From: Eukaryota sp. TZLM1-RC
Lineage: Eukaryota > Protista > Metamonada: BaSk clade
DNA: 64,000 nt
Direction of reading: 5' to 3'
Assembly (NCBI GenBank): GCA_040285825.1
Contig: JAUPSS010000003.1
Span: forward strand, 2,790,001-2,854,000
In this document: positions 5,913 through 49,109 of the stretch, one piece after another
Layout of the letters: each line of letters begins with the position of its first letter
How positions within the stretch are numbered: position 1 is the first letter of the stretch
Program-made: the position numbers and the translations under genes
The notes under the pieces: model-generated
Told to the model about the DNA's origin: nothing
The model's input: the letters and a program-made list of their open reading frames with translations, nothing else
Databases searched by the model: none

Positions 5913-7130
5913 TCAAAATCTTTTCAAAACTTGAGGACTTTCATTTCCTTTGATATACTCATCCACAACATGATTCATATTAAGAACAGCATTGACATTA
6001 CGATTCCATAGACATCCACACTTTTTGCAAGTGAGTTATCCATGTCTAAGGACCGTTGGAATCTTTACTCTCCTGTAAGGTCTTGGATTAGGTACTCGAT
6101 GTTTCTTTACATTTTCGCCTTCTTTTCTCTCGACTACCCATGCATGACATTGACAACTTGTTCTATATTCATCCAGCAGCAATCACCAGAAGTTGCGTTT
6201 TTTAAACATCTTTCGATAACCAACATTCTTTGTAGGTGCTTGATGTTTAAAATTGGTATGCCTCCAATCACCCATCACTACAATGTTTTTTTGGACCTCC
6301 AAACTTATTTTCAAATTCAATCATCCATTTTGCTTCAAACCTCTCTGTGGCCATGAATTTTCGTTGTTTCATCACTCTCAATTCTTTGTTAATGTAAACC
6401 CTCCAATATGCATAGATAAGTTGTTTTTTGCCTAGTTTAGGAATTCTTCATGATCCAGAGTTTTCTTTGAAAATTGTTTTAATTCTTCTTCCCATTCCTT
6501 TACAGTTTTGTTTTGATAAATCTATGATTCTTTAGCATCCTTATAGAATTTTTGATGGTCTTTGTTCAGAGTTTCGCTTCTTCTTTGAGGAGCAGTGATC
6601 TTCTCAAATGTAAATTTCTTTAGTGTTGTTTTCTTGTTTTCATCTGGTGGAGGAGGATTTTGTTTTGGCCCCTGAAAAGAAAAAGCTGAAGTCTAGAATC
6701 TTTTGTTTTGTCTTTTTTTCATTCAGTTAATAAATGCTCTATTTCTTCCTTTGTTTTCTTCATGGCGCAATTCGTACCATTCTTATCTTGAATCTGTTGG
6801 GTTCAGTTAACCTGTTTGGATTTCGGCAATTTAATTTTCGTTTCCTAGCCATCAATAGGTCCTTAATGAAAAAATTAAAGCAGTAATCTTTCTGTTGGAA
6901 AGCTCTTTTACCCGTTCGAAAATCCCATTTCCAATATTGATGTTGGATTTTTTCCATATTTTCTCCAAGAAGAGCTTCAGAATTTCTCCAGTAAAGGGAT
7001 TCATCGGGGATCAGAATTCAGTAAATTGCCTGTGTGTACCAGAAAGCATGCCTAGGTATTTCAGTTGTCTGAAATGGAAATAACTTCTTTCTAATTGGAT
7101 GTGACTTTGGCAATTTCAAATTAATATTTG
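5913..7130 (-). pseudogene. Fanzor1-like (eukaryotic TnpB) RNA-guided nuclease pseudogene, copy 1
   Basis: Manual translation across stops and frameshifts: LFPFQTTEIPRH...QRRSET...TVKEWEEEL...FGGP..IVVMGDW...APTKNVGYRKMF...LLDEYRTSCQCH...NPRPY..RHG*LTCKKCGCLWNRNVNAVLN (RuvC-II, Zn finger, RuvC-III). Confidence 0.85.
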
Positions 7131-7399: not shown

Positions 7400-10300
7400 T
7401 TTTTGTATTTATTGAATTTGCACACTTGATTAAATTAAATCATAACTAATGGGACGACTATCATTAAACCAAGATTTCCTCTACAAAATCTTGATTTGCT
7501 TGCTGTCTAGCTAAAGCTTCTCTAATTCGATTGAAAAACCGCGGTAATCTATTAATAATGGCAAATTGAATCCGTGAACGCCATAAAAAAAATATCAAAT
7601 CTTTTCATTGTTTTTTCTTTCACCATTTTTTGGAAGTCATCCAAAAAAGTTTCTGCTTCAACTGATAATCTTCCATTTATCGAAAATGGGAAAGCAATGA
7701 AAACCAGCTGTGTATTTCTATCGACATTTGCATCTTCAATATCTTTATCATATTTTCTATGTTTCTCTTTTGTTTTAAAATCCAGAGCAGCCACAGGATT
7801 AAGTTTTCTTCTGTGAACCAAAGTATAATTTGCAACATTACATGAGACAAAGTCAACAATAGCTTCAGAATTATCAATCCAATCACAGTATACATCACCT
7901 CTATCATCAGAACCAAAATTATTCAGAGAAAGTGTTTCCTTCAGCAGGGGCTCTTTGATACACGATATTCTTGCAGTTTGTGCCATATTGAAAACAGTGT
8001 CTCTAACAGCATCATGTAATGAAGAACGATAAGTTATCAATTTAGAGCAATTTAGAGCATGGCGCAAAGTGAGTTGAGGTGAATTCGAACAAATACATTT
8101 TTCTTTTGATAATAATTGGTTAATGGGGATGTTCAAATATAATCTCATTTTTGTTACAAATGCTTCATTAGTGGCACACAATCCAAATCTTCGTGGTACA
8201 ATGGTTACAAAAAGTGAAGAATCTGACGCCTTGTTTGCACAAACACCCTTTTCCAATAACAATGAGTGAAGATCTTGATTTATAACAGCCGAGCTGCAAA
8301 TATTATTATAAAGATCTTTTTCATACATTCCAGTCAATCTTTTCTGTAATGTTCGAAGAGTGTACTTCAAATTTAAAACATTTTTTTCTGGAATATTGCC
8401 ATTGAATGATTGGGGAAAACATCGACCCCATTTTTCTACATCAATTCTTGAAATTTCTTCATTTAATGCAAAAACAGTGGAACTTTGCGTTGTCATCAAT
8501 AAATCTTCCCAATCTGCAAATCTTTCGGAAAACTCAAAGATTGCATTTCTGCATCCACCAACAAAAGCACACGAGGTAAGAATAGAAGCCTTCGTCTACC
8601 CTAAACCGCCATAATGTGGACTAAGGTATGCATGATCTGGAATTTGAAACATTTTACATCCCAGTAATTGAGACAGAACTTTTGCACGTAACTCATTAAA
8701 CTTCTGAGCCAAAGGTCTAGTGACGAGAGGATTTGTAGATCGAAATATATGATTAAAATTGGAACTAAAACACAGTCTTATAATGGTAAATTTGATGTGT
8801 TTTTTTATATCTAAATTTATCATTCGGTCAATTTTGTCAGAAATTGAGTTCAACTTTTCAAACAATTTTGTGGTAATTTCATCATTATTTCCTAAAAACG
8901 AACCCAAATGACGAATAGCATCAATTGAACATAATTTGGCTTGAACTTCAATATCATCAATTATTGTGGAAACTGGAGAATTCGATAACAAAACACACTT
9001 AAGTAAATTAAGTCGGAGACCAATTTTGGTAAATAATTCTTTAAAACATACAGTTGCTTTTTTCACAATATTTAAATCACCAATAAGCACAACATCATCC
9101 ATATATGCAATCATTTTTAGTGAAGGAAACATCTCTTGAATTTGCAGTAGAATAGGATGAATGGCCAAACAAAACAAAAGAGGTCCTAACGGATCTCCTT
9201 GCTTTACGCCACTTGATGAACTCAAAATGTTGTTACCAAAATGTAAATTAGAATATGTGCAATATGTTGATTGAAAATATGATAACTAATTCCGGCATAT
9301 ATTACAATAGAGCACCATGGATACTGCGACGACTTAGTGAATTGAAAGCATTACTAAAATCCAATAATGACATGCAAACATTGGATTCATTTTGACGAAA
9401 TAAGACATCAGTAGCAAAAATCGCTGAAGAGACTCCATCTGTAGTATTTATACCATATTGAAAGGGTAATAAGATCTTTTTAGCTTTTTCATTGAACCTG
9501 CTTAAGCAACACGCAGAAAAAATATTGTGTAAGCTCTCAGAGACTGCAATAGGACGAACATCCATTTTTGAATTTTTGACAAGTGCAGTCAAACGAGAAC
9601 TTCTTAATTCTTCTGGGTATTTGCGTTGACCAGATAATATTTGGTTGAAAAATTTGGTCAATAAACCAAGGCAATCTTCTGAAGAAATAATCGCGGCTTT
9701 TACATGATCAATAGTAATACCAGAAAGTCCGGCAGACTTACCACGAGGTCTCTTTTTGATAACCGAAAAAACTTCTGATGGCATCAATGGAAAATTTTCC
9801 CAGTATGTGCCGTAAAAATTTTGATCCATTATAGGGTCTTCATAAGGATGAAGTATTTTCAGTTTATCTATTGTATTTTCATTGTTCGGTGCTTTAACTC
9901 CGGGACTTAAAGCTGACAAAGCCTTGGACCATTTGTTGTCAAAGCATTTGTCTTCAAAAATTTTACTTAATTTCTCGGATGACTGATTTCTCGGTGCTAT
10001 ATTAGTTAAATCTTCGGAAATATTAACGAAATTTTGTTCAAAAGGAGGACAAAAAGAACCAAAAAATTCCCAAATAATATTGATAGCATACTTTCCTTTA
10101 CATAATTGATCCAAAAATCTTTGAAAAACGAAAGCAAATTCATTGCATTTGGTCGGATGAATTTCTTGAGGTATTCTTATAGGAGGATGGTAGTTATCAA
10201 CTATGCGGCATTTCAAGCAGCGGTCAGAAGTTTTTCCTTTGCATTTTTTCTAAAAGAAATACCACAAGTGTTGCAAGTTTTGTGCTTTAATCGGTTGCAA

Positions 10301-10743
10301 ACTGGTTTTGCAACAATTTGTGGAGCATTATTTATGGGTTCTACCTTAGACTCTTTCCTTCTAATAAATTTTCTTTTACATTTTGTTTCAGAATTTGCCG
10401 CATCATTTTTTCCAACATTGGGGCATGTTCGAGCATTATGTCCCTGTTGTCGACACTTTGAGCATCTGTAGGAGCGTGGCTTTGTTTTTGAACAAACTTT
10501 GTTTTTATCGTGATTGTCTAAAAATTCTTGATCAAATTTTTTTTGTCCAAAAATGAAGAGAGAAGAGGTTGAGGAGGAGAGGTGGAAAGGACGTCTTGAG
10601 CATCTTGTTGACTATCGTTCTTTCTTTTGACTCTATTAGAATCAGAAACTGATTCAGGCATCAACAAGAAAGAATAGAAGCAATGATCTCGGTTCAGCCA
10701 GGTTTTAAGTTAAACGGTTATATGTAGAGGAAGAAAAAAAAAT
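7400..10743 (-). mobile_element. Full-length RLE-type (CRE/R2-like) non-LTR retrotransposon, family A
   Basis: Zn knuckle CSKCRQQGHNARTC, RT (RPIAV, QGDPLGP, YMDD), CxC..HxxxC, RLE motifs (HD, RGD..D, KxxKY); 9-bp TSD TGAAGAGAT at 7391-7399 and 10744-10752; near-identical to 45730-49069. Confidence 0.95.
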
Positions 10744-10967
10744 TGAAGAGATGAATAGAATATACTTCAAAGAAGCAAAGGAATCTCAATATTCTGAAAC
10801 ACTATAGCTTGTGATCATTCCATTAGATTTAAGATAAAAATTTGGGACACCATCAGGTAGTGACTTGCAAGAAGTGGTAATCCAATAAAAAATATAAATT
10901 ATTAATATTTATTTTTCAGTCTTTTGGAATGATTAAGATCAATACTACTGAAGTAGGTCTTAGAAAT

Positions 10968-11856: not shown

Positions 11857-12903
11857 CTATTTCAATGATTTTGCACTTTTTCTTGACTGCCCGATACCTC
11901 TTATCTTCTCTAATCTTTTTTTATGTTCTTCAGCAACTGTTTTCCTCAACGGATTTTCTATTTCTACAAACTTTTTTAATTCAGACACTGTGGTAATTCC
12001 ATTTTGAACACCCATAATAATATCCTCAAACTCAGCCCGTAGCTTACGCTCCTCTCTGAACAAATCTAAAAGGGCCTCAAACTCCGAATGGTCTTCATGT
12101 GGGAAGAATTGAGCAAAAATTCTAGTTTCTTCAAAAAGAGCACGTTCCCAATTATCATCATTCTTATTTCGCCATTCCCTGCGATTGATGGGAAGAAGAT
12201 TTCTTTTCATCACAAAATCCTTTCTATAAGCTCGTTGTTCAACAATGTCACTGTATGCAGAGAACAGCTCCATTTGGAGCTCTTCTAGCAGAGCGGAATT
12301 GTCCTTTATAGTGGAAAAGGCAACTAAAACCTTGTCTGCATCATTTCTGTACTCCTCAACAAAGTCATGACGGAGGGGATTGTAGAGCACTTCTTGTTGT
12401 AGCTTCCGTTCTTCTTCTTCCTCTTTGGACTTTGGGTCAGGCAGTTCAGAAGGTGCCTTATCTGACGGTGGGGGAAGTTCTTCCACATGGTGGGGTGGGG
12501 GAGACTGTGTGCGGTGAGGAGGAACATAAGACAAATCAGGTAGATTGTTGGGTCCTTTGCAGTATATATCAATATAATGACGCTTTACTTCTGATGGAGT
12601 TACTTTACCAATGTGTTCAGCTATTCCTTCCCAATTACAAAGTCCATAAAGATCAATAGCTTCCATTAGAAGAAGTTCGTCCTCAGCGGACCAATGGTTT
12701 TCAAATAAAGGTCGAGACTGGAAGTCCACAACACGGTAACAGTGAGTTTTGCGGTGGTTTTCAAGTTCCACTCCTACAGAGAAACAGTTTACACAAAGGT
12801 CAAAGTCAGCACATTCAGCACAACGAATATGAACATCAGCACTGATATTAGTCCGACAGTTGTTACAGTGGTAGTCACGACTAGCAGTGACAACTGTACT
12901 CAT
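11857..12903 (-). CDS. ADA2: Transcriptional adaptor ADA2 (SAGA)
   Basis: ZZ finger CNNC..IRCAECADFDLCVNCF; SANT WSAEDELLLMEAIDLYGLCNW; YNPLRHDFVEEYRNDA motif. Confidence 0.92.
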   Translation of the reverse strand: MSTVVTASRDYHCNNCRTNISADVHIRCAECADFDLCVNCFSVGVELENHRKTHCYRVVDFQSRPLFENHWSAEDELLLMEAIDLYGLCNWEGIAEHIGKVTPSEVKRHYIDIYCKGPNNLPDLSYVPPHRTQSPPPHHVEELPPPSDKAPSELPDPKSKEEEEERKLQQEVLYNPLRHDFVEEYRNDADKVLVAFSTIKDNSALLEELQMELFSAYSDIVEQRAYRKDFVMKRNLLPINRREWRNKNDDNWERALFEETRIFAQFFPHEDHSEFEALLDLFREERKLRAEFEDIIMGVQNGITTVSELKKFVEIENPLRKTVAEEHKKRLEKIRGIGQSRKSAKSLK

Positions 12904-12954
12904 TGGTGAAGAGGTGCAATTTTTGTACTTATGTCAGTTTAATAATTGCTCTAT

Positions 12955-13767
12955 ATTTATTGAACATGTACACTTAATTAAATTAATTCATAACTAATGG
13001 GGCGACTATCATTGAACCAAGATTTATTCTACAAAATCTTGATCTGCTTGCTGTCTAGCTAAAGCTTCTCTTATTCGATTGGAAAACCGAGGTAATCTAT
13101 TAATAATGGCAAATTGAATCCGAGAACGCCATAAAAAAATATCAAATCTTTTCATTGTTTTTTCTTGAGCCATTTTTTGGAAGTCATTCAAAAAAAAATT
13201 TCTGCTTCATCTGATAATCTTCCATTTATCGAAAATGGGAAAGCAATAAAAACTAGCTGTGTATTTCTATCAGCTTTAGCCTCTTCAATATCTTTACCAT
13301 ATTTTCTATGTCTTTCTTTTGCTTTAAAATCAGGAGCACTCACAGGATTAAGTTTTCTTCTGTGAACCAACGTATCATTTGCAACATTATATGAGACAAA
13401 GTCAACAATAGCTTCAGAATTATCAATCCAATCACAGTATACATCACCTCTATCATAAGAACCAAAATTATTCAGAGACAGTGTTTCCTTCAGCAGAGGC
13501 TCTTTGATACACGATATTTTTGCAGTTTGTGCCATATTAAAAACAGAGTCTCTAACAGCATCATGTACTGAAGAAGGATAAGTTAACAATTTAGAACAAT
13601 TCAGAGCATGGCGCAAAGTGAGTTGAGATGAAGTCGAACAAATACATTTTTCTTTTGATAATAATTGATTAATGTGGATATTCAGATATAATCTCATTTT
13701 TGTTACAAATGCTTCATTAGTGGCACACAGTTCAAATCTTCTTGGTACAATGGTTACAAAAAGTGAA
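12955..13767 (-). mobile_element. 3' fragment of family-A non-LTR element
   Basis: Close match to 48256-49064 including the 3' UTR and AATAAA end. Confidence 0.93.
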
Positions 13768-13784
13768 TACAGAAGTGAGCCTGT

Positions 13785-14012
13785 TCAATGGGAAATTCCC
13801 GTAAGTACACGCTCAATTTTCGTGACGAATAATGACAAAAACTGTCTACTAGACAGGTACTGAGGCCTTTCATTACCACTCATTCTGGCTTCAGCAATTG
13901 TAAACATAATCAGACAAGCCTGCTTATTTCTATTGAAAATCTTTGTTGAGCCTTTGTTGTTAAATTTACAACTCTCACCGTTACAAGCTAATAAACCATG
14001 ACACGTAGTGAC
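13785..14012 (-). pseudogene. Fanzor-like C-terminus (copy 3)
   Basis: CHGLLACNGESCK...FNRNKQACLIMFTIAEARMSGNERPQYL aligns with copy 2 RHGLTMCKSC..WNRDRNASLN...EARVNGGDRPEYL. Confidence 0.8.
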
Positions 14013-14666
14013 AATGGGGTTGATGATTACCAATAATGTTAAAAAACCTACGAAGCAAGTTTTTTCCGTCAGACAATATTTCTGCCTGAATATCCATGTC
14101 AATGTCAGGTAATCTGGTAATTTGAGGACTCATTTTCGATATAAGTGAACATTCACTCACCAAAAAGAAATTATGGTGATCAAACCTTCCTACAACAATT
14201 GAAATTAAAAAGATTTTTTGACCTGAAATCCATTCATCCTTATGCTTATCAGTTTTTCTTTTAAAAAAATTTGCACAATCTTTTTTTATTTTATCACTAG
14301 TCTTATCAGGTTTAATCAAATGGTTCTCATTGTTTCTGTAAAGCTGACCATCCTGATAGGTTTCAAGATCAAAGCACATAACAGTGGAAAGATTTTCATT
14401 TGTGGGCATTGATTTGAATTGAATCAAAGGATCAGGCTTGAAGCCACTACGTCTTGGGTCAATAATTTTGACCATACTCGGTTTCAATTGTTTTTTTGTC
14501 AAAATCTTCCTGTTCTCGAAAATCACCATTGTATTCTCAATAGAAATTTCACGGTTCAATAAGTTTTGTTGTTTCTTTCGCTGACGCTTTGATGTTTCAT
14601 TGTCAAAAATCTCTTGTCGAATAGTTTTTGATGGAGGAATTGACTTACAATTGGATCTTCTTTTTT
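14013..14666 (-). pseudogene. Family-B DNA polymerase 3'-5' exonuclease-like fragment
   Basis: ExoI-like VMCFDLETY (14356-14382), KIFLISIVVG, then NLLRRFFNIIGNHQPH resembling the PolB 'ExxLLxxFxxxIxxxxPD' segment; truncated before ExoII. Confidence 0.65.
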
Positions 14667-14693
14667 GGGACCAGGATTTGCTTCAACATCTCC
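14667..14693 (-). other. 2A/StopGo ribosome-skipping motif GDVEANPGP within ORF 14556-15017
   Basis: LFAVALTMDGDVEANPGP fits the consensus (G)D-[V/I]-E-x-N-P-G-P exactly. Confidence 0.85.
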
Positions 14694-16032
14694 ATCCATT
14701 GTTAAAGCAACAGCAAATAAGTTTGTTGACAGGAGATGTTGGAAGCTACTGGATTCAAAACATAAATTATAAACATAATCATAAAACTGAACATTATCAA
14801 AATAATAATTTAAGACAAAACATCCCATATCCAAAGTGCAAGTACCTAAACCACAAAAAGCAACAAACTCAAAAGCATCAAAATGACAACAATATAAAAC
14901 AAAACACAAACAAGAAAAACTCCCCAAATCTAAAGTGATTAAAACCATGGCTGATTCAACAACACCCATATCATGACTCACATGGTGACTCAAAAAAGTG
15001 CAATACTCTACCCCCACGGAAGGATTAGAACGACGCTCTGACCGAGGCTCTGACCTTTCGTTTATTTCTATATAGCAGATTGCCTGTTCCCCACTGAGAA
15101 TTCTGGGAGGAAGAACTCTGCTGTTCTGTTAAGAACAGATTGAAGAAGGAGGCGGGAACTGAGTACGTTACCTCGTTATACTTGTTTTCTCGCCTTGCTG
15201 CATGATGTTAGAAGAATGGGAAGAGTCGAGGTAATTTCGCTGGCTGACACGATCTCTGACACGCTGATTGCAATTTCAAATTGATTGCTTATTTTCACAA
15301 TTTTTTCAAATGCCTATCCAATGTATCTCTATTAGTGGCCATCAGCATCAGCTGGATTTACCCTCTAGCTGTTCTGGTACCTGGTAAAAATATACTATAG
15401 TATCTGTATACCTGAACCTTTCATTACCGTCATCCAAGTTCTACATTGTGTCATCTTTTCCCTTCAACCTAGCTCAAGAAGTAAAAAGGAACAATACCAC
15501 AACATTTCAATCATTCATCTGAACTTCCATGTTAATGCGAATGTCAAGGCTAATGATCTGGAGGTTTCTGACAAGAACACTGAATACTTCTATATTTGAT
15601 TCTACCCTTTAGACAAGAGAATTATATGAATCTTCTTCCAGCAGATCAGACTGATAAAACTTTTTAATATGAAATTTGTTTATGACAATTTCAATAAATG
15701 ACCATGATAGTTAGTAACAATTTGCGCATTCAATTTTTATTACAGACATATATGTATTCAGAGCAACAGAGGAACTTTACAAATGAAAACACTGCACAAA
15801 AAAATATATGAAGGGACAACACAACAGGACATAAACAGTCAAATAGTATAGCAACTTTGAGTCTTGACAAACCACTTAAAGATCTTGTAAAAACATGGTC
15901 ATAAAATAGTGTTTATTGGTAAAAGAAATTTAGGAAATTTTTTTTTACCATTCATCACAACAACTGAAACTAACAATGCTTATGATGACTTATGACAACT
16001 CTACAATACAAACCGCATATTATACAAAAACC

Positions 16033-16650
16033 TTACAAAATCCCATTCCTGCAAACATTTTCCAAATCCCATCGACTCTCAAACTGATCAATCAAATCTA
16101 AATCAGTCACATCATCATCTTCTTTTACTCCCTTCCTCATGGTATTGTTCATCTTCCTACTTAATTTTAGTCTCTGTTGATCAAGACCAATACTTGACTC
16201 TAAGTACTCTCTCTGTTCTTTTCTCCTTTTAAAGGCTTCTCTTATGCAGTCTCGTTTGTAATGAATATCTGCCAACCTTTCTTGTTCCTTGATGCGCTCT
16301 TCAGTTATTGCTTTCATTTCCATCGTTTGTGCAAAAGCTTCCAGATCAGGTCGTTCATGTAGTTTGCGTCTGGAGGTAGGTTCAGCTGATTGTTGTCTAG
16401 TCCAGTAGAAAAGGAAATTCTTCTTTACTGAATTTGGTCGTGTTTCATTTTGCTGATAAACACTAGTACTAGTGGGAGGAAAAGGATGATTTGAAGTGGT
16501 TTCTTGATGTAACGTTTTGATGCAAGAGGATGAATCAGGAATGGTAGAATTAGTGTGACAAAGTTTATCTAAAAGACCAGTGTTCTGTAGCTTTTCTAGA
16601 ACAACAGTGGGATCTGTGGTAGAACTATCAAATGTGAGATGGTCTGTCAT
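16033..16650 (-). CDS. Hypothetical protein (coiled-coil C-terminal half)
   Basis: Intact 205-aa ATG ORF; no recognised domain. Confidence 0.6.
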   Translation of the reverse strand: MTDHLTFDSSTTDPTVVLEKLQNTGLLDKLCHTNSTIPDSSSCIKTLHQETTSNHPFPPTSTSVYQQNETRPNSVKKNFLFYWTRQQSAEPTSRRKLHERPDLEAFAQTMEMKAITEERIKEQERLADIHYKRDCIREAFKRRKEQREYLESSIGLDQQRLKLSRKMNNTMRKGVKEDDDVTDLDLIDQFESRWDLENVCRNGIL

Positions 16651-16691
16651 TCTTACAGATGATGTCTATAACAATGAAATAAGTGTCCTTT

Positions 16692-17384
16692 TTACTCCAA
16701 TGTAGAGGGTTTAAGTTTTTGAGAGGTGGAAGATTTTCTCCTTAATACCTTTTTCTTTGAACCTTCAACAACCTTGACTCTCTGTAGGTATTCCGGCCTA
16801 TCTCCACCATTTACACGTGCTTCCATCACTGCCAACTTATTCAACGAAGCATTTCGATCTCTATTCCACAAACTTTCGCATGATTTACACATGGTAAGCC
16901 CGTGACGAATAGACATCTCATGCCTCTTCCATGGCCTTGGATTTCTGCACCATCGGAATGTTTCAACTGTTTTCTCCTCTTTCTTACAGTTGAAACAACA
17001 GCAACTGGTTCGAAACTCATCAATTAAAAAGACCTTATAACCAGCCTTTTTAAATTAAATTCTCAAACCTTTTCCTTTTGTAGGTTCTTTGAATTTCATG
17101 TGTTTTCGTTGTTCCCAGTCTCCGATTCCAATAACCACTTGACCTGGATCACCAATTACTGATTTGAATCTCTGTATCATCTTCGCCTCAGATCTTGTGC
17201 GATTAATCTCAGCCCACCATCTTAGTTTCCTAAATATTTTTTGATAATAGACTTCACCAACAATACTATTCACAAAATTCTTTTGTTTAATATATACCAT
17301 TAATCTATCAAACCTGCAGTTTTTGGAATTGAATTGGGATAAAGTTGCTTCCCATTCTGCTACACATTTAGTTTTTTTGATCAT
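16692..17384 (-). pseudogene. Fanzor1-like nuclease, 5'-truncated (copy 2), single internal stop at 17055-17057
   Basis: One continuous frame: EWEATLSQFNSK...FRKLRWW...IGIGDW..KEPTKGKGLRI*FKKAGYKVFLIDEFRTSCCCFNC...NPRPW..RHGLTMCKSCESLWNRDRNASLN...RPEYL. Confidence 0.92.
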
Positions 17385-18739
17385 TATTACTCAAATTGAA
17401 TGAGTAATGAGCAGTTCAATATCTGTCATTCTTACAGGTTTTTACACCAATATAGAGGGATTCCCTTTTGCATTCCCCTCCTTTCTTTTTTCTTTTCTAC
17501 ATTATCACTGTCTTTTCCTGCAGAATACTACGCCACAGCTGAAACAAAAATGTTGACTTTCATGAGACCGACTGGAGTATTCTTGATGGTGTACTACCAA
17601 TGCAGTCCAGTTCAGTGCTTACCTCACTAAATGACATACTTACCTCCTATGCGACTCACTTTTGAAATAAAGGAAGCAGAAACATTGGAAGAAACACTCT
17701 CAGCCCCGGGTGCATGCTCTTCTACTAATACTATTGATTATTTCCTCTTTTGTTGATTATTTCAGTTGGTGCAGTGTGGATAACTGGGCAAAACGTAAGT
17801 GGCTATGTAAAATATAAGTCTTATGCCTCATTTTTCTATGAAGAGGATGGTAGATTTTGGTTCACTCGTCTTGATGAGTTTGTCAAGTTCTTGTTCTGCT
17901 CATTTTATTGAACAGACCAAACTAAATAATATCAGAATCTTCACCAAAAATTGGAGGTCTTTATCAGATTTGTCTTTCAAAAATGGCTGAAAGATGATAG
18001 TAACTGTTTCATCAAAGTGTTCCCCAACATGGATAGGTCTCAATATGAACTCGATTTAGAGAAGCACAGGTTGAAAATCGCTCGTGCTATAAGCATTGAC
18101 AGTCCGCAGCAACTTCATCCCAATCTTGCTTTATAACCCAGGGCTACTGAAGGATGGGTGTTGTTCAAAACATTTAATGAAAATAATCAAAAATGATCTG
18201 AGTGTTGTGCCAGCTACAGTGTCAAAATTTCGATTACTCAAGGTTTTGTCTGAAATCACTGCCAAAACTAAAAAATTAGTCTGAAGAATAGATTTTTGGT
18301 TAATAGAGAACATAATTGAATGAAGACTTGGTCAATTGCAAGAAGGTTTTAATAGAGAAAATTGATATTGAAATTGTAGAATTTATTCACCCTATACTTG
18401 TCTCGCCTCACTGTCCAAAGCAACTTTCCGAAGATGCAGAGGAACTGTTCTATTACAGCAATAAATATAACAAATCAAGGTATATCTTAGTTTATTTCTG
18501 CAATTCAAAATGTTTCATTTTGTTGAGCATAACAGTTTGAAATTATCTCTAAAATTCTATTTTATTGCAATTCATATGAAGATAGAAATCAACAACAAAT
18601 TCAGCTATTCTATTCGACATAAACCGCTAGTTTTGGATCAGACAACCATGGTGACTTATGACATTCACCATGAACCCTCCTATCCTTCCAAAAAGTGATG
18701 AATTTTTGTATTTGCGTGGAGATTCGAGCGATAAGCTGA

Positions 18740-25153: not shown

Positions 25154-28100
25154 ATGTCAGTCTCTCCTCACCAGGACACTGACTCTTTTAAGATTTTCAT
25201 GCAACAGCACGACAGAGATGCATGTAATACATTCACAACAATAGGAGAAGAAGTAAAGAGTGAGGATTCGGTCTCGAGACCACCCTCCACCCCCCCCCCC
25301 CCAAGAGAAACCAATGGAACCAGACACGGAACCAGGCACGGAACCACCTCCCCCCTCTTCCAAGTCCAACAAACCAGAAAAGGTTTCAGGAACGGGACCA
25401 CCCCCCTCCTCACCTAAAGATAAAAATGTTGGGTCAAGCTCAGAAACTTCGTCTGTTCTGAAGGACTACGAAGAACTTCAGTCCGTTTTAGAAGAAATAG
25501 CCGTCGAAGAGAAAGAATTTCGCCAACAGATAATAAAGGACGCGGAAGCCCACCTCGAACCTACAGATTATTGTTTGTTCGAGCAGCTCCCTCCCCTTTG
25601 GAAACAAATGACAAAATCTGGTAGAAACGTGGGATTCTAGACTCTGGGCCATAAAGGGGACCCTAATAGAGTCTACGAAATCCCTCAAAGCGAGAGAAGA
25701 GAACTAATTAACGCTTTGGACGCCCTGAGTAGAGAAACCTACGGATGCGGGGCAGAACGCCGTCCTAGGATAACCGGTATGGACAGAGAAATCCATGTGA
25801 TTCTGGCAAATCCAATCAAAGATAGACCTGATTGGGAAGCCATTCACTTGGACCAGTTCGGGAGAAGGATCAGGTTCTTAGCCATCGAACGAAGGAGTAG
25901 AACCGATAGCGACGCCATCCTGGAAACCAAATTGTCGGCATGGATGGACTCGTACTTTGATACGATCATCCATAACTACTCAGAGGTAACGGATGGGGCT
26001 CCTACTTGTTTCAGGGAGTATATGGAACAAGCAGAAAGCACAAATTTAAGCAAGGTGGAACCCTGCAGTGACTTTTTTGACGTGGACGCCCTAAATAATA
26101 TACTTACAGAACGTTCAAGCGTCTCCACATTTAGGAGCCGCCCAAACAACTTTATTCAGCATTTCGGGGAATCTACAACAAGGAAGAAGAAGTTCAGATT
26201 CATGGTCACGGGCGATCAATCAACAGAGCTCCACCAGAGACCTAAACTTCCAGTAATTGCCCCCATTATATCTGAAAAAGAGCAACCAGTACACGTCTGT
26301 TCTATCGATGTACTTCCTGGCCACATCCCAACAGTAGATGTAACAGAACGAGCAAACAGACCTACCAGAGTGGTTCAGGAACCATCAAGTTCCTCCCAAC
26401 CTATGCTCACTAGTGCATCAGAAGACGATGTCGAGTTGAGAGGACCTAGTTTAGATGAAACACCTCCTCCTCAACCCTTTCGTAGAAGAATTTCTTCTGA
26501 GGAGCCTCTTCGTTTGGAAGACCTCCAAGCTCCAAGCAATATTTTGGACATGAGTATAGCGAGTAATCTTCAAAGACATGTGGACTCTCAGCCTAGGTCA
26601 GATGAATACAAAGCTCCTCACCTATCTGAGAAGGACCCACTCAACAAAATGTCTCTCGTCTCCTTCCTTCTCAAGTTCCAAACATGGGATAAATACGGGC
26701 GCAAGATAGCTAATAGAAGCTTCCAAGTCCCTGGTCAATCTGATTGGTCTCGTGCTATGTTGATAGAAACTCAAATATTCAGTGAATGAAAGACCCAGAT
26801 TACCCCTGAACTCTTATCATCTCTCCCATCTCACATAAGGGAAGAAATTGATAGGGACATGAAGCAGCCTTTTATTAAGGATCGACCCAGAACTGACGAA
26901 ACGTTTGGGACCTCCTATTCATCATTACGACTTATCTAGAAGTATGATGATCAGTACTTGTCCGTCTGGCTTATCAAATATGGTTGACCCCCTCCTTATC
27001 TCTAGATGGCAAAGTCAAGAACTCTTAAGACCGGACTTCTCTGATGCAAATATAGTGGTATTTCTGCTACGCAGGACACAATTTACCTCTTATCACAAGG
27101 CCTGTTCCGCCCTAGCAAAACCTTGCATTAATTGGAGAAACATACACAACACAATGGAAGCTGACAAAGAATTTGGTCGGTTCGTCGAAGATTTTGGAAA
27201 CGTTCTGAGGATAACCACTTACATGGTTGATCATTCTATATCTACATCGATTAGGGGAAGTAATGGTTTAATAACCCCCTCACCCGCCCTCATTGCAGAA
27301 TATTTTCTCTTGGGTATAGATAATTTCGCCATTACCAAGGAGCTGGCAAGCCATTGGACAAGAGAAGATTTCTGGGACCCTTCAACAAGTACAACTTTGT
27401 TAGACCTGATTTCGACCACCAGAAGACACTTTTTAGCTTGGTGCCAAACAACAGGAAATAGGCACACCATGGAACTTTTGAGAAAACAAGCTGAAAGAGA
27501 AGAAGATATTCCATTAGGCCTTTCGACCATGAGAACGTACTCTAGAGGAGCAATTCCATCTAGTCCAGGTGCTCAACGTCGCTCGGAGGGCGGACCCAAA
27601 GGAACTCCCCAAAACAAATATGTCCCAAAAAGACATGAACGGGAGGGATCTAAGTTTTGTACATTATGCAACGTCACCGAAGGAAATAACCCTATTGGTC
27701 ACTCGGTCTTTGAATGTAAAGACCCCCGTTGTACCAGGAGCAAGGTACCTAAAGAATTAAGGTTTAAGATCGGCGAGGCTGATCAGCCTGCGAGAAATGG
27801 CAGTGTAGTCAGGGGCCGAGGTGGCCGTGGTAGACGTGTATCTAGGTTTAGAGGTAGGGTCCGAGGTGGCCATTTTAGAGGACATAAAGGCAGAGGTCAG
27901 TATAGACCTATTTATTACATAAACACACAAGAGGAAACATCATCAACATCATCCCCTTCTGAGAACGTGTCAGCTAGTTCGAGCATGACCACTCACAGAC
28001 GGATTGACCGTTTCAGCAACAGGGTCAGAAACACAGGAAACTTTCCCAATCGGAAACAAATCAACGTAATCAATCATAATCAATCAATTGCCGATTTCGG

Positions 28101-28176
28101 AAACCCAGTCAACAACTCCCCCAACAGCTCAACAATTCTTACTAAATCCTCTACAATTCCACAAACCCAGCTCTGA
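25154..28176 (+). pseudogene. gag-like region (frameshifted)
   Basis: Successive ORFs downstream of the LTR; C-terminal CTLC-x10-H-x4-C and RG-rich nucleocapsid-like tract. Confidence 0.75.
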
Positions 28177-31100
28177 TATCAATAGTATTTTTGGTATAAA
28201 TTCTACGGTTAGTGAGAACCACATCAGATCCCAGCGTTCTCCATTTCTAAGATTGGAGATTTTAATAAATAATATAAAAATGATTGTAACTATTGATTCG
28301 GCAGCGTTTTGTTCGGTTAAAAAAGAAGATTTGGCTAACAAATGCAACATGTCAATTAATAGAGATGATACAATTGAGTTCTTACCAGCCAATAACGTAT
28401 CAAGTGAATCGCTAGGGAGTGCAAATGGTATTCTGTCGTTCAACGTAGGAAGCATTGCGCACCAGGTACATTATAGACATACTCTTCCCATAATCCCGGG
28501 TTCGAACAAACAATTAATAGGGATAGACATGTTAAAAACACTTGGGCTTCAGATGGATGATGGTCTTTTCATTAGATTAGACAAAGAACACCACATTTTG
28601 TTAAATGAAGAATCTGAATTCGACTCTAGAATCGCTCAACATTCGATTGGGAACTTAGATAACCAATCATCGAGTCCTTCCGATTTTGAGGAGCAGTTAA
28701 CTAGATCTGGTTGTGAGATAAATTTAGATGATAGTAATAATAAATTAAAATTAACGAGTTTATTGAAATTGTTCAGCGATGTTTTTAGTGAAACTCCAAG
28801 TAAAAAAGGTATTGATTGTAGTCCTCTTACAATCCCCTTTCGCGATGAAAACGCTATTGTACATAAACCTGCTAGACGGTTAAACCCAAGCAATCTAGAA
28901 ATAGCCAACAAAATATTCGACGAATTGATAGAAATGGGTTATGCAGTTGAATCCAATTATAGATTCAGCTCTCCTATTGTCCTAGTTATCTACCCAGATG
29001 ACCTAGATTAACCTAGATTAACTGGCGACTTTAGTGGTACAGACGGTGTTAATGCCCATACAATTTCTGTCGAACCAAATTTACCGCGGATTAGTGACAT
29101 ATTAGAATTTTTGAGCAGAGCTGACTACATTGCCACGCTTGATTTACCAAAAGCTTTCTGGCAAATGAATGTAGCAAAAAAGGGTATTGAAAAAACATCA
29201 ATTTCAATACCTGGAAGGTCCATTATGTTCAAAAGAGCCTGCTTCGGTTTAAAGAATATCCCAGCAGTATTTCAAAATGTAATGATGGAAATTTTTCAAT
29301 AGACGGCGTTTTCATATACATAGACGACATTATAATAGTCGGTTCTTCATTTGATGAATTCTGCAAACAACTACAAAGAGTCCTCGAATGCGCCAGGAAA
29401 AGACGGGTCAACATTGGTTTACGAAAATGCAAATTCGTCACAGCCAAACACCCCATTGACATATTAGGGAAGTACCTTCCAGAACAAAACTAGGTTCATC
29501 AGCAAGAAAAAAATAGAAGCCCTTATGAGAATACCCAGACCAAAAACATTGAAAGAGGTTCGCTCCTGGGTTGGATCAATTAATTACATAAGAGATTGGC
29601 TTACTGGAATTTCTGAATTAATAGCTCCAATTAACGAGTTAATAAAAGGAAAACCTAGAACTATCAAATGGACCAATGTGCATGACGAGTATCTTAAACA
29701 AATCAAAGATTTAATAGTAAACCACATGCCTCTTGAATTACCAGCTCCGGGCAAGCGAGTATTAATAAGTACTGACGCTTCAGATGTAGCAGTAGGAGGT
29801 GTAATTTGGCAAGAAATTGAACCCTACTCCCCTGCAGGAACCCCGCTAAATAAAAGGAAAGTGCAACCTTTGTCATTCTATAGTAGATTACTTACAGAAA
29901 CACAATCAAAATGGTCCACCTTACAAAAGGAATTATATGCAATACTTTTGATTTTAACTGAAAGTTGTTTAGAAAGCTACCTTTTGACTAGACATCTAAC
30001 AATTTTCACTGATCACAAAAATATTGCATTCCTTGCCACAGCCCCAGAGAAAAACAGAATTGTAAAGAGATGGCTGCCGATACTATTTGAATTCGACTTT
30101 GATATAGTCCATGAACCAGGTGAAGATAACCACTGGGAAGATATGCTATCGAGGAATATTGATTTAGATCAAAACAAGGAAACTTCTTCTATATGTAGTA
30201 TAAATATACCAGATACTTTACTTTCGAATTACGAGATACCTTCAATAGACGATGATTCTGATTCGGACTTCGAAGACATCCCATCAATTTCATCCCTAAG
30301 TAGACACCAGGACTTACCTATTTTTTCTTCTTGGTTCTCTAAAATAAGATCTGAACAACAAATAGCCAAAAATCACAATGACCCTCTATTTGAGAATGCA
30401 ATTCTAGATGAAAATACTTAAATTTGGAAAAACAATAAAAATAAAATTTTAATTCCAAAAAGCCTCAGAAAACAGGCTCTACTATTAATACATGGATTGG
30501 TTCAATCAGGCCACCCCAGCAAAAACGACAGTCTACATAAACTGTGCAAAAGCGACTTTTTCTGGCCTAGTATGAGAAAGGACCTCATAAACCACATCAA
30601 AAGATGCCCAACTTGTCAAAAAACGGCACCAGTTTCCCTTTGGGCAGATCGTCCTTTTGCTAGATTAAATGTCGACACAATACTGATAGTGATGGTAATA
30701 AATACTTATTAGTATTTGTAGATTCTTTAACTGGATATTCAATATTCAATTTTAGTCCCTCTGAAGGAACTCAATGCCTTAGAGACCGCAGACGCTTTAA
30801 TTTGGAACGTTTGCGCAATTTTGGCATACCTATGTTAATTCATAGTGATAATGGTCCTGAGTTCACCAATGAGACCTTTAAGATAGTGTGTAATAGATTA
30901 GCTATTGAGATGAGTAACTCAATACCCCACTACTCTAAAAGTAATGGACTCGTAGAACGAAAACATAGAGACGTTCTACAATGCTTGAGGAAATTATTAA
31001 TAGATTTAAATGATTATGGAAATTGGTCTACTTATGTACCCATATCCCAACTATTAATAAATTCCACTAAAAGCAGAAAGACAGGTTTTACACCTTACAA

Positions 31101-31783
31101 ACTAATGTTCGGATCTTCGATTAGTCCAAGATCGGACCCTGCAAACATATTAGGAAACTTATCAAAATTTTGATTCCGATATCCCTTTATTAGACGATAT
31201 TAAATTGAAAAATACTCGTCTGCAAGAAAAAAGGGAAGAAGCAGAGCGTCATCAATCATTAAATACTCCGATTACAGTAGACAATACTAATTCGCGTTCT
31301 ATAGTATTTAATATTGGTGACTATGTCCTACGTAAAACCAAACAGAATAATAAATTACATGGATCTTGGGACGGACCCTTTTTAGTAATAGATCATCCTT
31401 CCAACTCTACTTTATTATTGAAGAATCTTACCACTGGCACCGAATTAAAGGCTGCTAAGAAAGATTGCAAAATCTATAACGCTGAGAATCCACAGGATAT
31501 CGAATTTCTCAAGGCAGTCGCAGCAGGCGATGCTGAGAAACACGTTATAGAGAAAATCCTCTCAGAATATAATTCTGGCTCAGGTAGTTTCTGTACTGTT
31601 CAATGGTTTGGCGGTGAGACAACAGAAGAGCCTCTCCATTCAGTTAAACATTCAGAAGCTTACAAGTTGTTCAGTAGGAATAACAAGAAAATTGGAAAAC
31701 GTACTACTAGTCAACGTAAAAGTACCTCCAATAACTCTACGCCTTACAAGAGGCCTAGACGCAGTACTAGAATTAGGAAGTGA
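28088..31783 (+). pseudogene. pol: protease, RT, RNase H, integrase, chromodomain (disrupted)
   Basis: IDSAA (protease), LDLPKAFWQ / FGLKN / YIDD (RT), TDASD (RNase H), GH..CPTC, HSDNGPEF, NGLVER, WDGPF, HVIEKIL..VQWFG..EEP. Confidence 0.92.
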
Positions 31784-32751: not shown

Positions 32752-35700
32752 TTTTTTTTATTTATTTATTGTTAAAACTGGAATAATTATTGAGATAAAA
32801 CCCATCTAGAATTCAATATCCTCCAAACAAGCGTCACTATTACTGAACCTCACAGCATTACGTTCATATTCTACACCAATAGCTAAAAGTGCCTTTGAAA
32901 TCATTGTTGGAATAGACTTGAAAATGCAAAAAACAATTCTATTTAACCAGAAAGTGGAGTTAATTGTTTTACCAGACCTATTCAGTAACACTTTTTTGAA
33001 ATTTTCAAAAAAGTGCAACCCTGAAGGTCCAATATTGCCAAAAAGAGAAATTGCAAACGGCACAAACTGATATTTCACATGTTCCACTCTACCTAACTGT
33101 GCCAAAGGTTCTTCATATTTTTTTATCTTCTTTTTTTCGGCGTTAGATAACGGCGAATCAGCGGAATACACTAAACGAGCAGCAAAATTTTTGCAAACAT
33201 CCGCTGAGACAACGTCTACAACATTGAGAACACCATCGATCCCTGGATCTGCTAAATCTGCCCTTCTTTTACCAAAGGAATCATCAGTTTGATCTGAAGA
33301 CAGCTTACGTACTAGTGGCTCAATAAATGCCACTATATTGAAACTTTTGCACATGGCATATAATTGATCACGAACTGAGTCATGAACAAGTGAGCGATAA
33401 GTTATAAAATACTTACAGTTTAAAATATGGGAAAGCGTAACAACACTCTTGCAGAGACAATTTAAATCATTTGGTAATGAACAAGGCCATAGAAAACATC
33501 TCATTCTCATTGCAGTGGTCCATTGGTGATCATTAAGTAGAAGGCCATAAATGTTGGGAATTTGGGAGATTAGGCAACTTGAGCAACTGTCTTCAAGATC
33601 AATCAAAAAGTTTGCAAAAACGGGATTTTTTTCCTTAGCCAAGCTAAGACGTACAATATAATCCAAGTTTTCTAAAACTTTCAAGATTTTTTTCTGCAAT
33701 TTTGCAAAAGTCAGTGGTAAGGAGAGCAAGCTTCTTGAAGGAAGTTCCACAATATCAGAGGGGAAACATTTAGCCCAAATATTGGGTGAAAGAGTTTCAA
33801 TTTCCTGTTGCAATGAAATAAGATAAGAGCTGCCACAATTTTCAATGAGATGAATTTTTTCAGGAAAACGATTCACAAATTCATAAATAAAATTCTTTCC
33901 ACCTCCAATAAAGGCAGCTTTACAAAGGTAGCTTGATTTAGGAAAATCAACACCACCAAAATTTGTACCACAAAAAATGTGGCTTCGTAACTGAGATGCA
34001 TCAATTTCCAATAATTTTGCTAAAAAATTGGTTCTTTGTTCATTAAAAATGCGACACAACTCCAAAGAAATTGATGGTGATGTTGATCTCAAAATATGAG
34101 TAAATTTTCCAGAATAACAGATTTTTAGGAAAAAGAATTTCAAATGTTTCTCAATATTTAAATTTTCTATTGATTCTAATTCTTTTCCAAATTGAGTCAA
34201 CAGAGTCGAAAGTTGGCTTTTGACTTCATCAATATTTCCGAGATAACAACCCAAAAAACGAAAACCAGACTGATCATAATTGATAAAGGGGACATTGACA
34301 TCATTAATGGAAAAATCAATTGGCTCATGGCCAATAATCAAACATTTGGAGATATTCAATGAGAGACCAATATCTTCATAACGCTGTTGAATAAAGGTTG
34401 CTATTTGTTTCAGAATTGTAATAGGAGCAATTACAGAAATTTATTACTGTAATTGAAGTTCTTAAAGCTATTCAAAAATTGCCAAAGGGGAAAGCAGCAG
34501 GCCCATCTGGAATTTCTTTTGATCTGTTAAAAATAGCGTGTTCCAGTGCCCCCGAAATTGCTGATGATCTGGCCCATTATTTTCAACAATTAATTGTTTT
34601 GAAAATTAATCCCCCTTTTGAATTACTTGCTGCACGTCTGATTGCTTTGGTAAAGCCTGGTAATGGAATTAAACCTGATGGAATACGCCCAATTGCTGTT
34701 GGTGAATCTCTTTCTCGTTTGCTAGCATCAATTGTCTTCGATCGTGTCAAAGACAAAGCTTCTACATTTTTGAATCCTCATCAATTTGGAATCAAAACAA
34801 TTGATGGTGCTTCTGTTGCTGCTATTGCCTCTGATACCTTTTTTAATGCAGAGGAAAATAATTTTATTTTTAATCTCGACTTTAAAAATGCCTTTAATTC
34901 TGTAAAGCGAGAAGCAATTTTTAAAGTTATTAAATCTGATTTTCCTGAGCTATCGAGTTTTTTCTACCATTTTTATGGGAAAGAATCGGATTTAATTTTT
35001 AATTCATTTGGTCTTAAATCATCTTCTGGTGTGAAGCAAGGTGATCCTTTAGGCCCGTTATTGTTTTGTTTAGCTATTCACAAAACTTTAAATATCATTA
35101 AGCAAAAATACCCTTCTATAAAAATAGTTGTTTATATGGATGATATATCCTTGATTGGTTCATTTGATTTACTAGAATTGGTTGCTCAAGAAATTGCCGA
35201 TTCATATGAAAATATTGGGCTTCATCTTAATGCCAGCAAATGCCTTCTGATTGGATCTTCTGCTCAAGATCTCGTGATAAACGATTCTATTGTCCCTTTT
35301 ACTAATTATAGTAGTGATGCTTTTAAGTTCCTTGGCTGTTGGTTAGGAAACGTGCCTCAAATTCAGAATGAATTACAAGTTATTTTGGAAAAAATGAAAA
35401 TTGAACTTGATTCAATTTCTTCTTTAGATATAGAAAAGCATATTAAATTTTTCATGCTTAAAATTTGCTACACTGGGAGAGTAACCCACATTTTGAGATC
35501 TTGTGCTCCTTCCACAGCATTAGATTTTTGTCGTTCATTTAATTCATTGAGAACAGAATTTTTTGCTGATTTATTGGATGTTGAACCAGGAATGTTGAAA
35601 AGCCATTTATTTTCTTCAGCAAATTTGGGTGGTATTGGATTTACTAAATCTTCAATTTTGTGTCAATCAGCATTCTTGGGTGGTGGCAAATATTTTGTTT

Positions 35701-37290
35701 ATGAATTTTCTCGTAGATTTCCTGATGATTCTCATCTGTTAGTTCCCAATTGCAGTCCCTATTTGTATGAGTTATCTTGTGAACTTGAAAATTGCCGCCA
35801 CAAATTTGGACCAAATGTTTTCCTCAATCAATTCAAAAAATTCTAAACCGATCTCTTTTTAATTTACAGTTTTGCTGTAAAAAGCTTCAACAAAAATTGT
35901 CAAAGATTTTTGAAAGCTTGGATTTTGATGTTAGACTTGGCTTGGCCAAGAAACAGAATCCCGCTTTTGCAAATCTTTTACAAGATATGTGTGACAGTAC
36001 TTCTTCTGCCTTAGTAACAACAATTCCACAAGTTTATGGTACTCTCTTAACCGATTCTGCTTGGACTCTCAATATGAGATTTGGTTCCTTTATCTGGCCT
36101 GATAATTTACCTCATAATTTAATTTGTAAATGTTCTCGAGAAATTACAACTACTCATTTGTTAAATTGTAAACATTTTATTACTTTTAGAAGCAAGGTTC
36201 ATGATGCTGTAAGATACCAGTTATATTGTATGTGTAAGTCTCATAGAATCGAATCCTTTTTGGAACCTTTGTTGTCAAATCTGTTTGATGCTGAAGATGA
36301 TTTTCGTAAGAATAATAGAGGTGATGTTATATTACCTGGATTAGATGGAAGTTTCATTTTATTGGATGTAATGTCTGTTGATCCTTGTAATGCCTCAAAT
36401 GAAAGGCTAGTTAATTCTGAAATTCATAATCCCCTTTCAAATGCTGAAAATTTTAAATTCAAAAAATACAATGAACCTTTGTCCAAATTGGCCAGTCTAC
36501 AGCATGCAAAATACAATTTGTATCCATTTGTATTTTCCCTTTTTGGTTCACTTGCACCAACTGCTTTACGTTTTTTGGATGATTTTGAAATGATTGTAAA
36601 GAGAAGAACTGGCAGAAATTTCAACAGATTGCTTTGGCAAAATAGAATTGTGTTTTCTATTTTTAAGGGTATGTTGAAGATGGTTTCTGATGCTTTGCTT
36701 TCTCTTGGATCTCACTATGAGAGAGTTGCATCTAGTGTTTTTGTTCTGGGAGAGATGGATTTTTTTAGATGTTGATTTATAGGTTTTTAATAAAATTAAA
36801 ATTTTGGTAAAAAAAATTACAGAAATGTCACCCATATATGCCACAATATCTATTTCTGGGAATTTTTCTTTCAATTCGCACATTAATGGATGAATTGCCA
36901 GACAAAAGAAAAAAGGACCAAGTGGATCACCTTATTTAACACCTGAAGACGAAAGCAGGTCAAAGTTTTCATAGACCAATGTGGATGATTTTCCATAAAA
37001 TGAATAGAAAAAAGGTTCAACTTCAGGAAAATGCTTTTGCAGCACAGGTAAAATGGAAGAACGAGATACAGAATTGAAAGCATTCTTAAAATCTAAATTG
37101 AAGATGTAATTAGAATCACTAGAATTAAAAAACACATCCGACAAAAGAGCAGCAGAAGAAGCACCATCATATTGTCTTGATTCCAAATTGAAATGGACGG
37201 AAAAATTCCTTGGCTTTTTTCCCAATTCTATTGAAAACAAGAGACGCAAGAATTCTTGAAAACGATTCTCCAATTGCAATTGGATGTTCT
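32752..37290 (-). mobile_element. RLE non-LTR element, family B, split by a nested insertion (parts 36815-37290 and 32752-34440)
   Basis: RT part ends YMGDISVI at about 36815 and resumes ISVIAP at 34440; 517-aa ORF with CLC..HILNC, HDSVRD, RRAD, KIKKY; A-rich tail at about 32752. Confidence 0.88.
34441..36814 (+). mobile_element. 5'-truncated RLE non-LTR element, family C, nested in family B
   Basis: RT (RPIAVGE, QGDPLGP, YMDD) and RLE ORFs; A-tail; 12-bp TSD AATTACAGAAAT at 34429-34440 and 36815-36826. Confidence 0.92.
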
Positions 37291-45589: not shown

Positions 45590-45729
45590 ATAATAAACCA
45601 TTGTTCTTGAAATAATGCTTGTTGATGGACAAAGGTAACAGAATTATTGTTTGAAAATTGTTCAAATCTGTATCTTTAAGTGAATTTTGTGTGAATTTTT
45701 TTCAACAATTTAATTTATTCCAACGAGAA

Positions 45730-49069: not shown

Positions 49070-49109
49070 TATTCCAACGAGAAGCTAAACACAAGAATTA
49101 AATTTCTAA

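Follow-up and report, generated by a model that had tools for sequence, protein, structure and literature searches.

We analyzed a 64,000-nucleotide stretch of contig JAUPSS010000003.1 from Eukaryota sp. TZLM1-RC, which we take to be Skoliomonas litria; this whole stretch is referred to here as the window. On its minus strand, at positions 13768..15378, lie the remains of a gene whose open reading frames (ORFs) are read in three frames and which combine a 2A (StopGo-type) peptide, a 3'-5' exonuclease of the family B DNA polymerase (PolB) type and the C-terminus of a Fanzor1 nuclease. The window copy is dead and internally deleted. Comparison with its relatives indicated that these pieces very probably belong to one gene encoding, in order, a leader, the 2A peptide, a stretch resembling a nuclear localization signal (NLS), the PolB-type exonuclease and a full-length Fanzor1. 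Fanzor1 itself is known, but the variant described here, in which it is fused to a PolB-type proofreading exonuclease behind a 2A, appears from the literature searched to be new.

The relatives are predicted proteins and were compared at the protein level. The search with the exonuclease ORF retained 4 of 631 candidates plus 10 representatives, to which cluster members were added, and the search with residues 365-1065 of one relative, P0019, retained 5 of 4,937 candidates. The family set contains 25 fragments named by NCBI as Eukaryota sp. TZLM1-RC and located on at least nine contigs, two further fragments from GEM-RC1 and two others, one of which is the window's own ORF; P0016 and P0020 were unrelated short cluster members and were dropped. 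Skoliomonas sp. GEM-RC is a free-living metamonad with a long-read assembly corrected with short reads (PMC11316075).

P0019 (1,072 aa) carries a leader, an intact 2A, PRKRR, and the exonuclease motifs ExoI (DLE), ExoII (D) and ExoIII (D), and then continues in frame past ExoIII through RIHT..CL, RFIN, PIDTRT and TDG to WED. P0028 spans ExoII to beyond VVCDPGK (RuvC-I) and overlaps P0023, which ends in a tail of the window type, over 154 aa with 77% identity, and in the overlap between P0019 and P0023, 37 of 40 residues are identical. The frame runs from ExoIII into the Fanzor N-terminus in all eight proteins holding ExoIII, and tiling of the overlapping records gives a full protein of ~1,370 aa. 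Fanzor makes up about the last two-thirds of this protein, at its C-terminal end, and is not a separate terminal gene, as a first-pass annotation of the DNA had proposed. P0029 from GEM-RC1 carries this fusion too, with no gap at the junction, and is identical at 85 of 215 residues (40%) in the exonuclease and 171 of 395 (43%) in the Fanzor part. This result indicated that the fusion is older than the species split and that both halves have been kept. The region after ExoIII had also been considered as a degenerate polymerase palm, and this was dropped because of the Fanzor motifs in P0019, P0028 and P0029.

In the window copy, the N-terminal half of the exonuclease, which is of the DEDD class, occupies 14011..14376, retains the ExoI D-L-E and ends just before ExoII. 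This piece matched Pfam DNA_pol_B_exo1 (PF03104) at E=0.001 and 18.9 bits, under the cut-off of 23, and the relatives cleared that cut-off with 31.7-54 bits (best 2e-14), bearing out the annotation of a PolB-type exonuclease at CFDLETY. It is 64% identical to P0019 over 221 aa. In the relatives, ExoI (D-x-E), ExoII (D) and ExoIII ((Y)xxxD) follow one another in order, whereas the window copy has ExoI only. Among the family proteins spanning each site, the ExoI D-x-E is intact in 11 of 12, the ExoII D in 8 of 10 and the ExoIII D in 7 of 8. Further profile matches were to E. coli Pol II (7e-8) and Pol alpha (8e-5). The matches to PolB profiles end where the exonuclease ends, with that to Pol II stopping near position 360 of 795, and no match to the DNA_pol_B catalytic domain (PF00136) was obtained in any relative scanned. 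The window exonuclease ORF and P0028 had no sequence match in PDB. As to the lineage that donated the exonuclease, the matches appear distant throughout (E. coli Pol II, Pol alpha, phage PolB).

The Fanzor1 C-terminus of the window copy (13842..14013) consists of the second Cys pair of the zinc finger, RuvC-III (NRN) and RPQYL. It thereby retains only the last third of the Fanzor1 C-terminal motif, given as D-x(125,275)-[TS][TS]-xx-C4 zinc finger-x(5,50)-RD (PMC3627910). This tail by itself has no Pfam match, and it is 78-82% identical to seven proteins named TZLM1-RC (7 of 20 candidates in the tail search). P0023 fits the whole motif (VVCDPG D, the zinc finger FTSAKCPVC..C..C, then RN), and its top three PDB matches are all Fanzor1: PpFz1 (1.4e-19), SpuFz1 (3.6e-19) and GtFz1 (1e-5). 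The RuvC-I D is present in 3 of 3 relatives and the RuvC-III N in 7 of 7 as well as in the window; the rearranged RuvC-II glutamate stands just before the zinc finger, as MINE.FT, in 6 of the 7 tail proteins. N instead of D as the last RuvC residue is a GtFz1-type variant. We had considered NRN as the mark of a dead RuvC and dropped this because GtFz1 is active with an N in this position, and the same residue raises the activity of SpuFz1 (passages of PMC11423790). Further upstream, profile A2 aligned to the WED/RuvC-I region of SpuFz1 at E=0.0098, and REC motifs were likened to those of Fanzor1 by eye. The order of motifs after ExoIII agrees, by eye, with that of Fanzor1 SPu-2 and MDe-12, beginning at the very N-terminus of both (supplement S3 of PMC3627910), indicating that a whole Fanzor1 of ~737 aa follows the exonuclease. 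Residues 215-680 of P0029 matched DUF8286 clusters in the Atlas at scores below 0.9, which are leads only.

The 2A peptide lies at 14667..14708 and consists of the hexamer ALTMDG and the core DVEANPGP (14690-14667), directly followed by a run of six A residues (A6; 14666-14661). As the first-pass annotation had noted, the core is a perfect motif at the end of the leader, and a six-frame scan found it to be the sole NPGP-type match in the window; simulation of 200 windows of 64 kb produced the shorter motif [DGCN][VI]ExNPG 3 times. The core is kept in 8 of the 10 TZLM1-RC relatives that span the site, and a hexamer of the form DLTxDG, a class defined in PMC12846837, precedes it in 7 of 10. The link between 2A and exonuclease was also upheld: of the 10 proteins spanning the 2A, 6 carry ExoI in the same frame. 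Taken together, the window and the relatives contain a core of the type (D/G/C/N)(V/I)ExNPGP, a supportive hexamer and an in-frame downstream protein, the sequence features of a 2A/StopGo peptide. The activity of such peptides varies with upstream context (PMC12846837). The 2A of this family is probably functional.

The leader is encoded at 14709..15203, as identified by tblastn of P0012, P0013 and P0019 in three frame segments. It is a T-rich repeat, rich in Cys, Phe and Val, with a period of 32-33 aa in P0019, and does not resemble a simple signal peptide; the window leader is shorter than that of P0019. The proposed hydrophobic leader thus does precede the 2A, but it is a repeat, and the extent first given, 13768..15130, had to be revised to an ATG at 15203, homology to related copies as far upstream as ~15378 and a coding end at 13842. 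In P0008 (TZLM1-RC) the leader is unrelated and has 20-aa repeats of a different kind, yet DLTEHG-DVEANPGP stands before the same protein, which suggests that the 2A matters more than the leader; the P0008 leader is possibly in part a gene-prediction chimera. With its W..DLT-type 2A, P0008 suggests a second subfamily.

The damage to the window copy was delimited with related contigs, which come from three runs of one sample. That sample holds at most a tenth of the window words and so shows related copies, not the habitat. The 5' flank common to related copies lies at 15204..15378. Contigs cover up to 15386 and none covers 15387-15540; one loose end falls at 15378, and the position near 15378 is either the left end of the element or a truncation point. 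Frameshifts occur near 15190, near 15040 and at 14661. The last of these is the A6 run (14661..14666), which, as annotated, breaks the frame by 1 nt between the 2A and the KRRSNCK exonuclease frame, where the relatives read through in frame into the basic NLS-like stretch. One related contig has one extra base in the run. Another (151 nt, identical over 14521-14671) has A6, but only five letters beyond the run, and lends weak support to a real frameshift. The basic linker between 2A and exonuclease (14377..14660; KRR.., KRQRKKQQ) may act as an NLS, judging from its composition.

The exonuclease frame, one frame on from the 2A, reads ..KRRSNCK..CFDLETY..LLRRFFNIIGNHQPH, and the third frame, that of the tail, reads VTTCHGLLAC...FNRN...RPQYL. 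Exonuclease homology ends at 14011 and Fanzor-tail homology begins at 14013, with TGT in common (14011..14013), so that the two parts are joined out of frame, in agreement with the cut previously placed at about 14012. Related contigs leave the window into other sequence at 14011 on the exonuclease side and at 14013 on the Fanzor side, and one leaving at 14013 reads PRFYRREKTP, the same as the tail proteins. These data indicate that ~2.46 kb (~819 codons) were lost at the TGT overlap. The stop codon of the relatives, at 13844-13842, is lost in the window copy; its position makes 13841-13768 the 3' non-coding flank. After these 74 nt, the 3' part of a non-LTR retrotransposon (12955..13767, minus strand), foreign to the element and sharing 92% identity with the copies that lie at 7406-8218 and 48255-49064, replaces the right end, with a GAAT (4 nt) overlap at the junction; contig loose ends also fall at 13767. 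Among the best-supported differences listed between related contigs and window, 4 of 12 in the exonuclease, 1 of 7 in the leader and 5 of 12 in the tail are at the third codon position. The lack of a third-position bias in this small sample is consistent with decay. Relatives tile both sides of the deletion, and the annotated view of an internally deleted copy of a larger multicopy element, with the Fanzor tail in that same element, is therefore retained. In addition, the predicted proteins P0030, P0031, P0025 and P0010 join family fragments to retrotransposon or host sequence, which shows that nesting and deletion are frequent.

We propose, with moderate confidence, that the window holds a dead copy of a multicopy, likely mobile gene whose intact copies would encode a nuclease that is guided by RNA, both cuts and trims DNA, and thereby preserves the element. 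Skipping at NPG/P would shed the hydrophobic leader and free a protein of ~1,095 aa starting P-(R/K)-K-R-R, which would enter the nucleus. There, by analogy with known Fanzors, a guide RNA from the 3' flank would direct Fanzor to the empty insertion site, where RuvC (D/E/N) would cut. The tethered exonuclease would then trim the 3'-OH ends, the displaced non-target-strand flap first. With its 3' ends chewed back, the break would not be cleanly resealed, and it would be repaired from the element-bearing copy or the target would be lost. A transposase encoded elsewhere would move the element. Both nucleases are rather likely to be active in intact copies, and the balance tips slightly toward end-trimming of Fanzor cuts as the job of the exonuclease.

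Several points weigh against this proposal. Homologous repair needs 3' overhangs, which are not the product of a 3'-5' exonuclease. P0014 from GEM-RC1 has no 2A within 120 aa before ExoI, so the 2A may be confined to one lineage, and in the sole GEM-RC1 copy spanning ExoIII the D is replaced by H. All copies seen are broken and none is intact at full length; no single record retrieved covers exonuclease to RuvC-III, and none of the seven tail proteins has a locus tag adjoining that of an N-terminal piece, the nearest gap being 39 tags. The relatives are gene predictions. Two AlphaFold models were unusable (pLDDT 34 and 37), and fold searches with the second of these low-pLDDT models returned nothing at E<=0.001. 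The 3' non-coding flank (13768..13841) has short hairpins and is a candidate for a truncated guide-RNA (omegaRNA) scaffold, placed by analogy to Spu-1. It gave a modest signal: the segment 13768-13860 folds at z=-2.0, with 6 of 200 shuffles equally stable, and the flank is truncated at 13767. No transposase, termini or target duplication was found in the window flanks. Finally, fusions to TREX1, TREX2 or T5 impaired the engineered Fanzor2 MmeFz2 (PMC12923547).

This impairment, like the GEM-RC1 copy without the ExoIII D, would also fit a real fusion in which the exonuclease serves another purpose, namely 3' maturation of the guide RNA, trimming of element ends during transposition or repair, or DNA binding, with a 2A that is possibly non-functional. 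DnaQ/DEDDh exonucleases are accessory domains in other mobile elements (passages of PMC6338049 and PMC3627910), and in Cas1-Cas2/DEDDh the exonuclease trims integration substrates (PMC10284694). We consider this account unlikely, although it is the strongest of the alternatives, because the acidic residues are preserved in most TZLM1-RC copies and because the exonuclease is covalently attached to a nuclease that would itself create 3' ends. Its best profile matches are, moreover, to DNA polymerase proofreading domains, and such domains act on DNA.

The cut-and-trim proposal includes a mobile element, and the gene is indeed multicopy and likely part of one. The missing transposase, termini and target duplication could instead point to a decaying, host-domesticated or passively duplicated gene, as could the failure to find related loci in viral contigs, metagenome contigs or prokaryote genomes by pattern scans, which reach fairly close relatives only. 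A tblastn search of P0029 against plasmids and phages also returned nothing. However, at least 25 fragments are spread over at least nine contigs, all of them broken and two carrying retrotransposon insertions, and Fanzor1 is typically transposon-borne (PMC3627910); a gene family that is not a mobile element is accordingly very improbable. Spu-1 elements are Fanzor-only, with a 75-nt scaffold after the stop and no transposase inside (PMC10432273), and the role reviewed for Fanzor is restorative homing (PMC13565253). A scan of 12800-18000 against Rfam yielded 0 matches. The positions 15367-15360 and 16710-16703, the latter in the flank of a second Fanzor relic, show an inverted match of 8 nt, which was rejected as a terminal repeat, being too short and misplaced.

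Chance juxtaposition of unrelated debris, or an assembly chimera, might be suspected in a region full of retrotransposon and Fanzor relics, where no contig among the related records listed bridges the 14011/14013 junction, but the junction brings together N- and C-terminal portions of one protein family in the correct order and on the correct strand, and the fusion recurs in a second species, which leaves this explanation very improbable. Polinton-type elements carry a protein-primed or full PolB, genes for an integrase, a packaging ATPase and a capsid, and long inverted repeats. The first-pass reading of a self-synthesising or virus-like element that frees a nuclear DNA polymerase by skipping and bears a separate terminal Fanzor had in its favor the PolB type of the exonuclease and the PolB clusters that are the Atlas neighbors of P0002 (score 0.89, below 0.9 and a lead only), but it appears largely refuted already and is the least probable of all, since Fanzor follows the exonuclease in place of a polymerase domain in 8 of 8 relatives, no capsid, ATPase or integrase match was found among the 35 + 25 sequences scanned, and the pattern scans, with their reach of fairly close relatives, found no related locus in viral contigs.

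Compared with known Fanzor1 proteins, the family is alike in the C-terminal RuvC/zinc-finger region of SpuFz1 (PDB 8GKH), PpFz1 (9CF0) and GtFz1 (9CER), with matches down to 1e-19, and it shares with Fanzor1 and Spu-1 (PMC10432273, PMC11423790, PMC3627910) a basic N-terminus, multiple copies for which no transposase was found and a short, putatively structured flank after the stop. It differs in having, in one frame, an extra N-terminal PolB-type exonuclease of ~260 aa, a 2A and a 270-aa repeat leader, none of which was found for known Fanzors in the passages and supplement rows searched. Relative to the proofreading domain of family B DNA polymerases (PF03104), ExoI-III are in the same order, but here no polymerase domain follows. 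The 2A resembles those of RNA viruses and non-LTR retrotransposons in its core, D(V/I)ExNPGP, and its DLTxDG class (PMC12846837, PMC12338488, PMC13405545), whereas here it stands before an exonuclease-Fanzor in a protist repeat; two 2A surveys searched for the word Fanzor do not have it in their main text. Cas1-Cas2/DEDDh likewise is a natural fusion of a DnaQ-superfamily exonuclease, there one that trims DNA ends, to a protein of the CRISPR world (PMC10284694), but it is a bacterial adaptation module with an integrase and not a eukaryotic RNA-guided endonuclease. The tethering of an exonuclease to a guided cutter also recalls engineered TREX2-Cas9, T5-Cas12f exoCasMINI and MmeFz2 fusions; here, however, the arrangement is natural and present in two species. 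In TREX2-Cas9 and T5-Cas12f exoCasMINI, exonucleases were reportedly added to Cas9 and Cas12 to change editing outcomes. Engineered Fanzor2 fusions, by contrast, lost activity (PMC12923547).

No natural Fanzor with an exonuclease fusion or a 2A was found in the full-text literature, a body that leaves most subscription papers and Repbase outside. No instance of the word exonuclease stands in the main text of any of seven Fanzor-related papers: PMC11423790, PMC10530073, PMC10432273, PMC3627910, PMC10711439, PMC13565253 and PMC10691335. PMC10530073 lists Fanzors in 3,655 rows; in these, at 400 characters per cell, FDLET and FDIET are absent and NPGP occurs twice, neither time in a 2A core; for three looser motifs, 8 places each were examined of 12, 14 and 20. 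One row of that list (Data S1, Fanzor50_3203) has an N-terminus that by eye resembles an Ulp1/SENP-type protease, a possible other accessory fusion.

There is, in our judgment, an even chance that a metamonad Fanzor1 lineage captured a PolB proofreading domain and a viral-type 2A, and that the resulting natural RNA-programmable endonuclease/3'-5' exonuclease separates from an exchangeable leader during translation and determines how the breaks it makes are repaired. An exonuclease kept on a Fanzor1 across two species whose proteins are ~40% identical points to the processing of cut ends as a selected step. Comparison of an exonuclease-dead form with the wild type would provide a one-mutation test of how repair outcome is steered. 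A natural, co-evolved exonuclease-Fanzor would offer a ready design where engineered fusions failed on Fanzor2, and the gene would add an RNA-guided nuclease, from a metamonad-type protist, to the known cases of 2A recoding.

The surrounding window contains compact eukaryotic genes (TFIIB, ADA2, Arf, TyrRS and others) amid many retrotransposon relics, and it holds further Fanzor relics on the minus strand. The second, at 16692-17460, is distinct from the studied copy, with a Cas12f1-like_TNB match at E=6e-7, ~29% identity to P0023, a canonical NRD and internal stops. Repeats lie on either side of it (17459-17422 and 16709-16643, minus strand), one a near-repeat of 21 nt and the other exact over 16 nt, which may be a target duplication, a repeated end or a duplicated piece of RuvC-I coding sequence; an unrelated ORF (16033-16665) has its start within the downstream copy. 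A third relic lies at 5925-7080, and a look-alike of its 3' end occurs at 62577-62681 (minus strand), beside a host gene. The 3' flanks of the three relics (13778-13766, 5839-5827 and 16709-16663, minus strand) have a motif in common, with 13 nt identical between the studied copy and the third relic, and in one related contig the studied tail is followed by sequence that resembles the flank of the second relic over 47 nt. This motif may be a guide-RNA or right-end element that different families have conserved.

On the plus strand, two ORFs at 41881-43142 look by eye like the relic of a pogo/Tc1-type DDE transposase, with no Pfam match at E 0.1, and are flanked by repeats of a 17-nt unit with internal palindromes (family D18); they are a candidate partner transposase. 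Several families of non-LTR retrotransposons (7400-10750, 32800-36800, 45700-49100 and others) encode a reverse transcriptase and a C-terminal endonuclease-like region, and the copies at 7.4-10.7 kb and 45.7-49.1 kb are 97-99% identical. A frameshifted LTR-type (Ty3/Gypsy-like) retrotransposon at 25641-31783 (plus strand) has RNase H matches together with frames that by eye are protease- and integrase-like.

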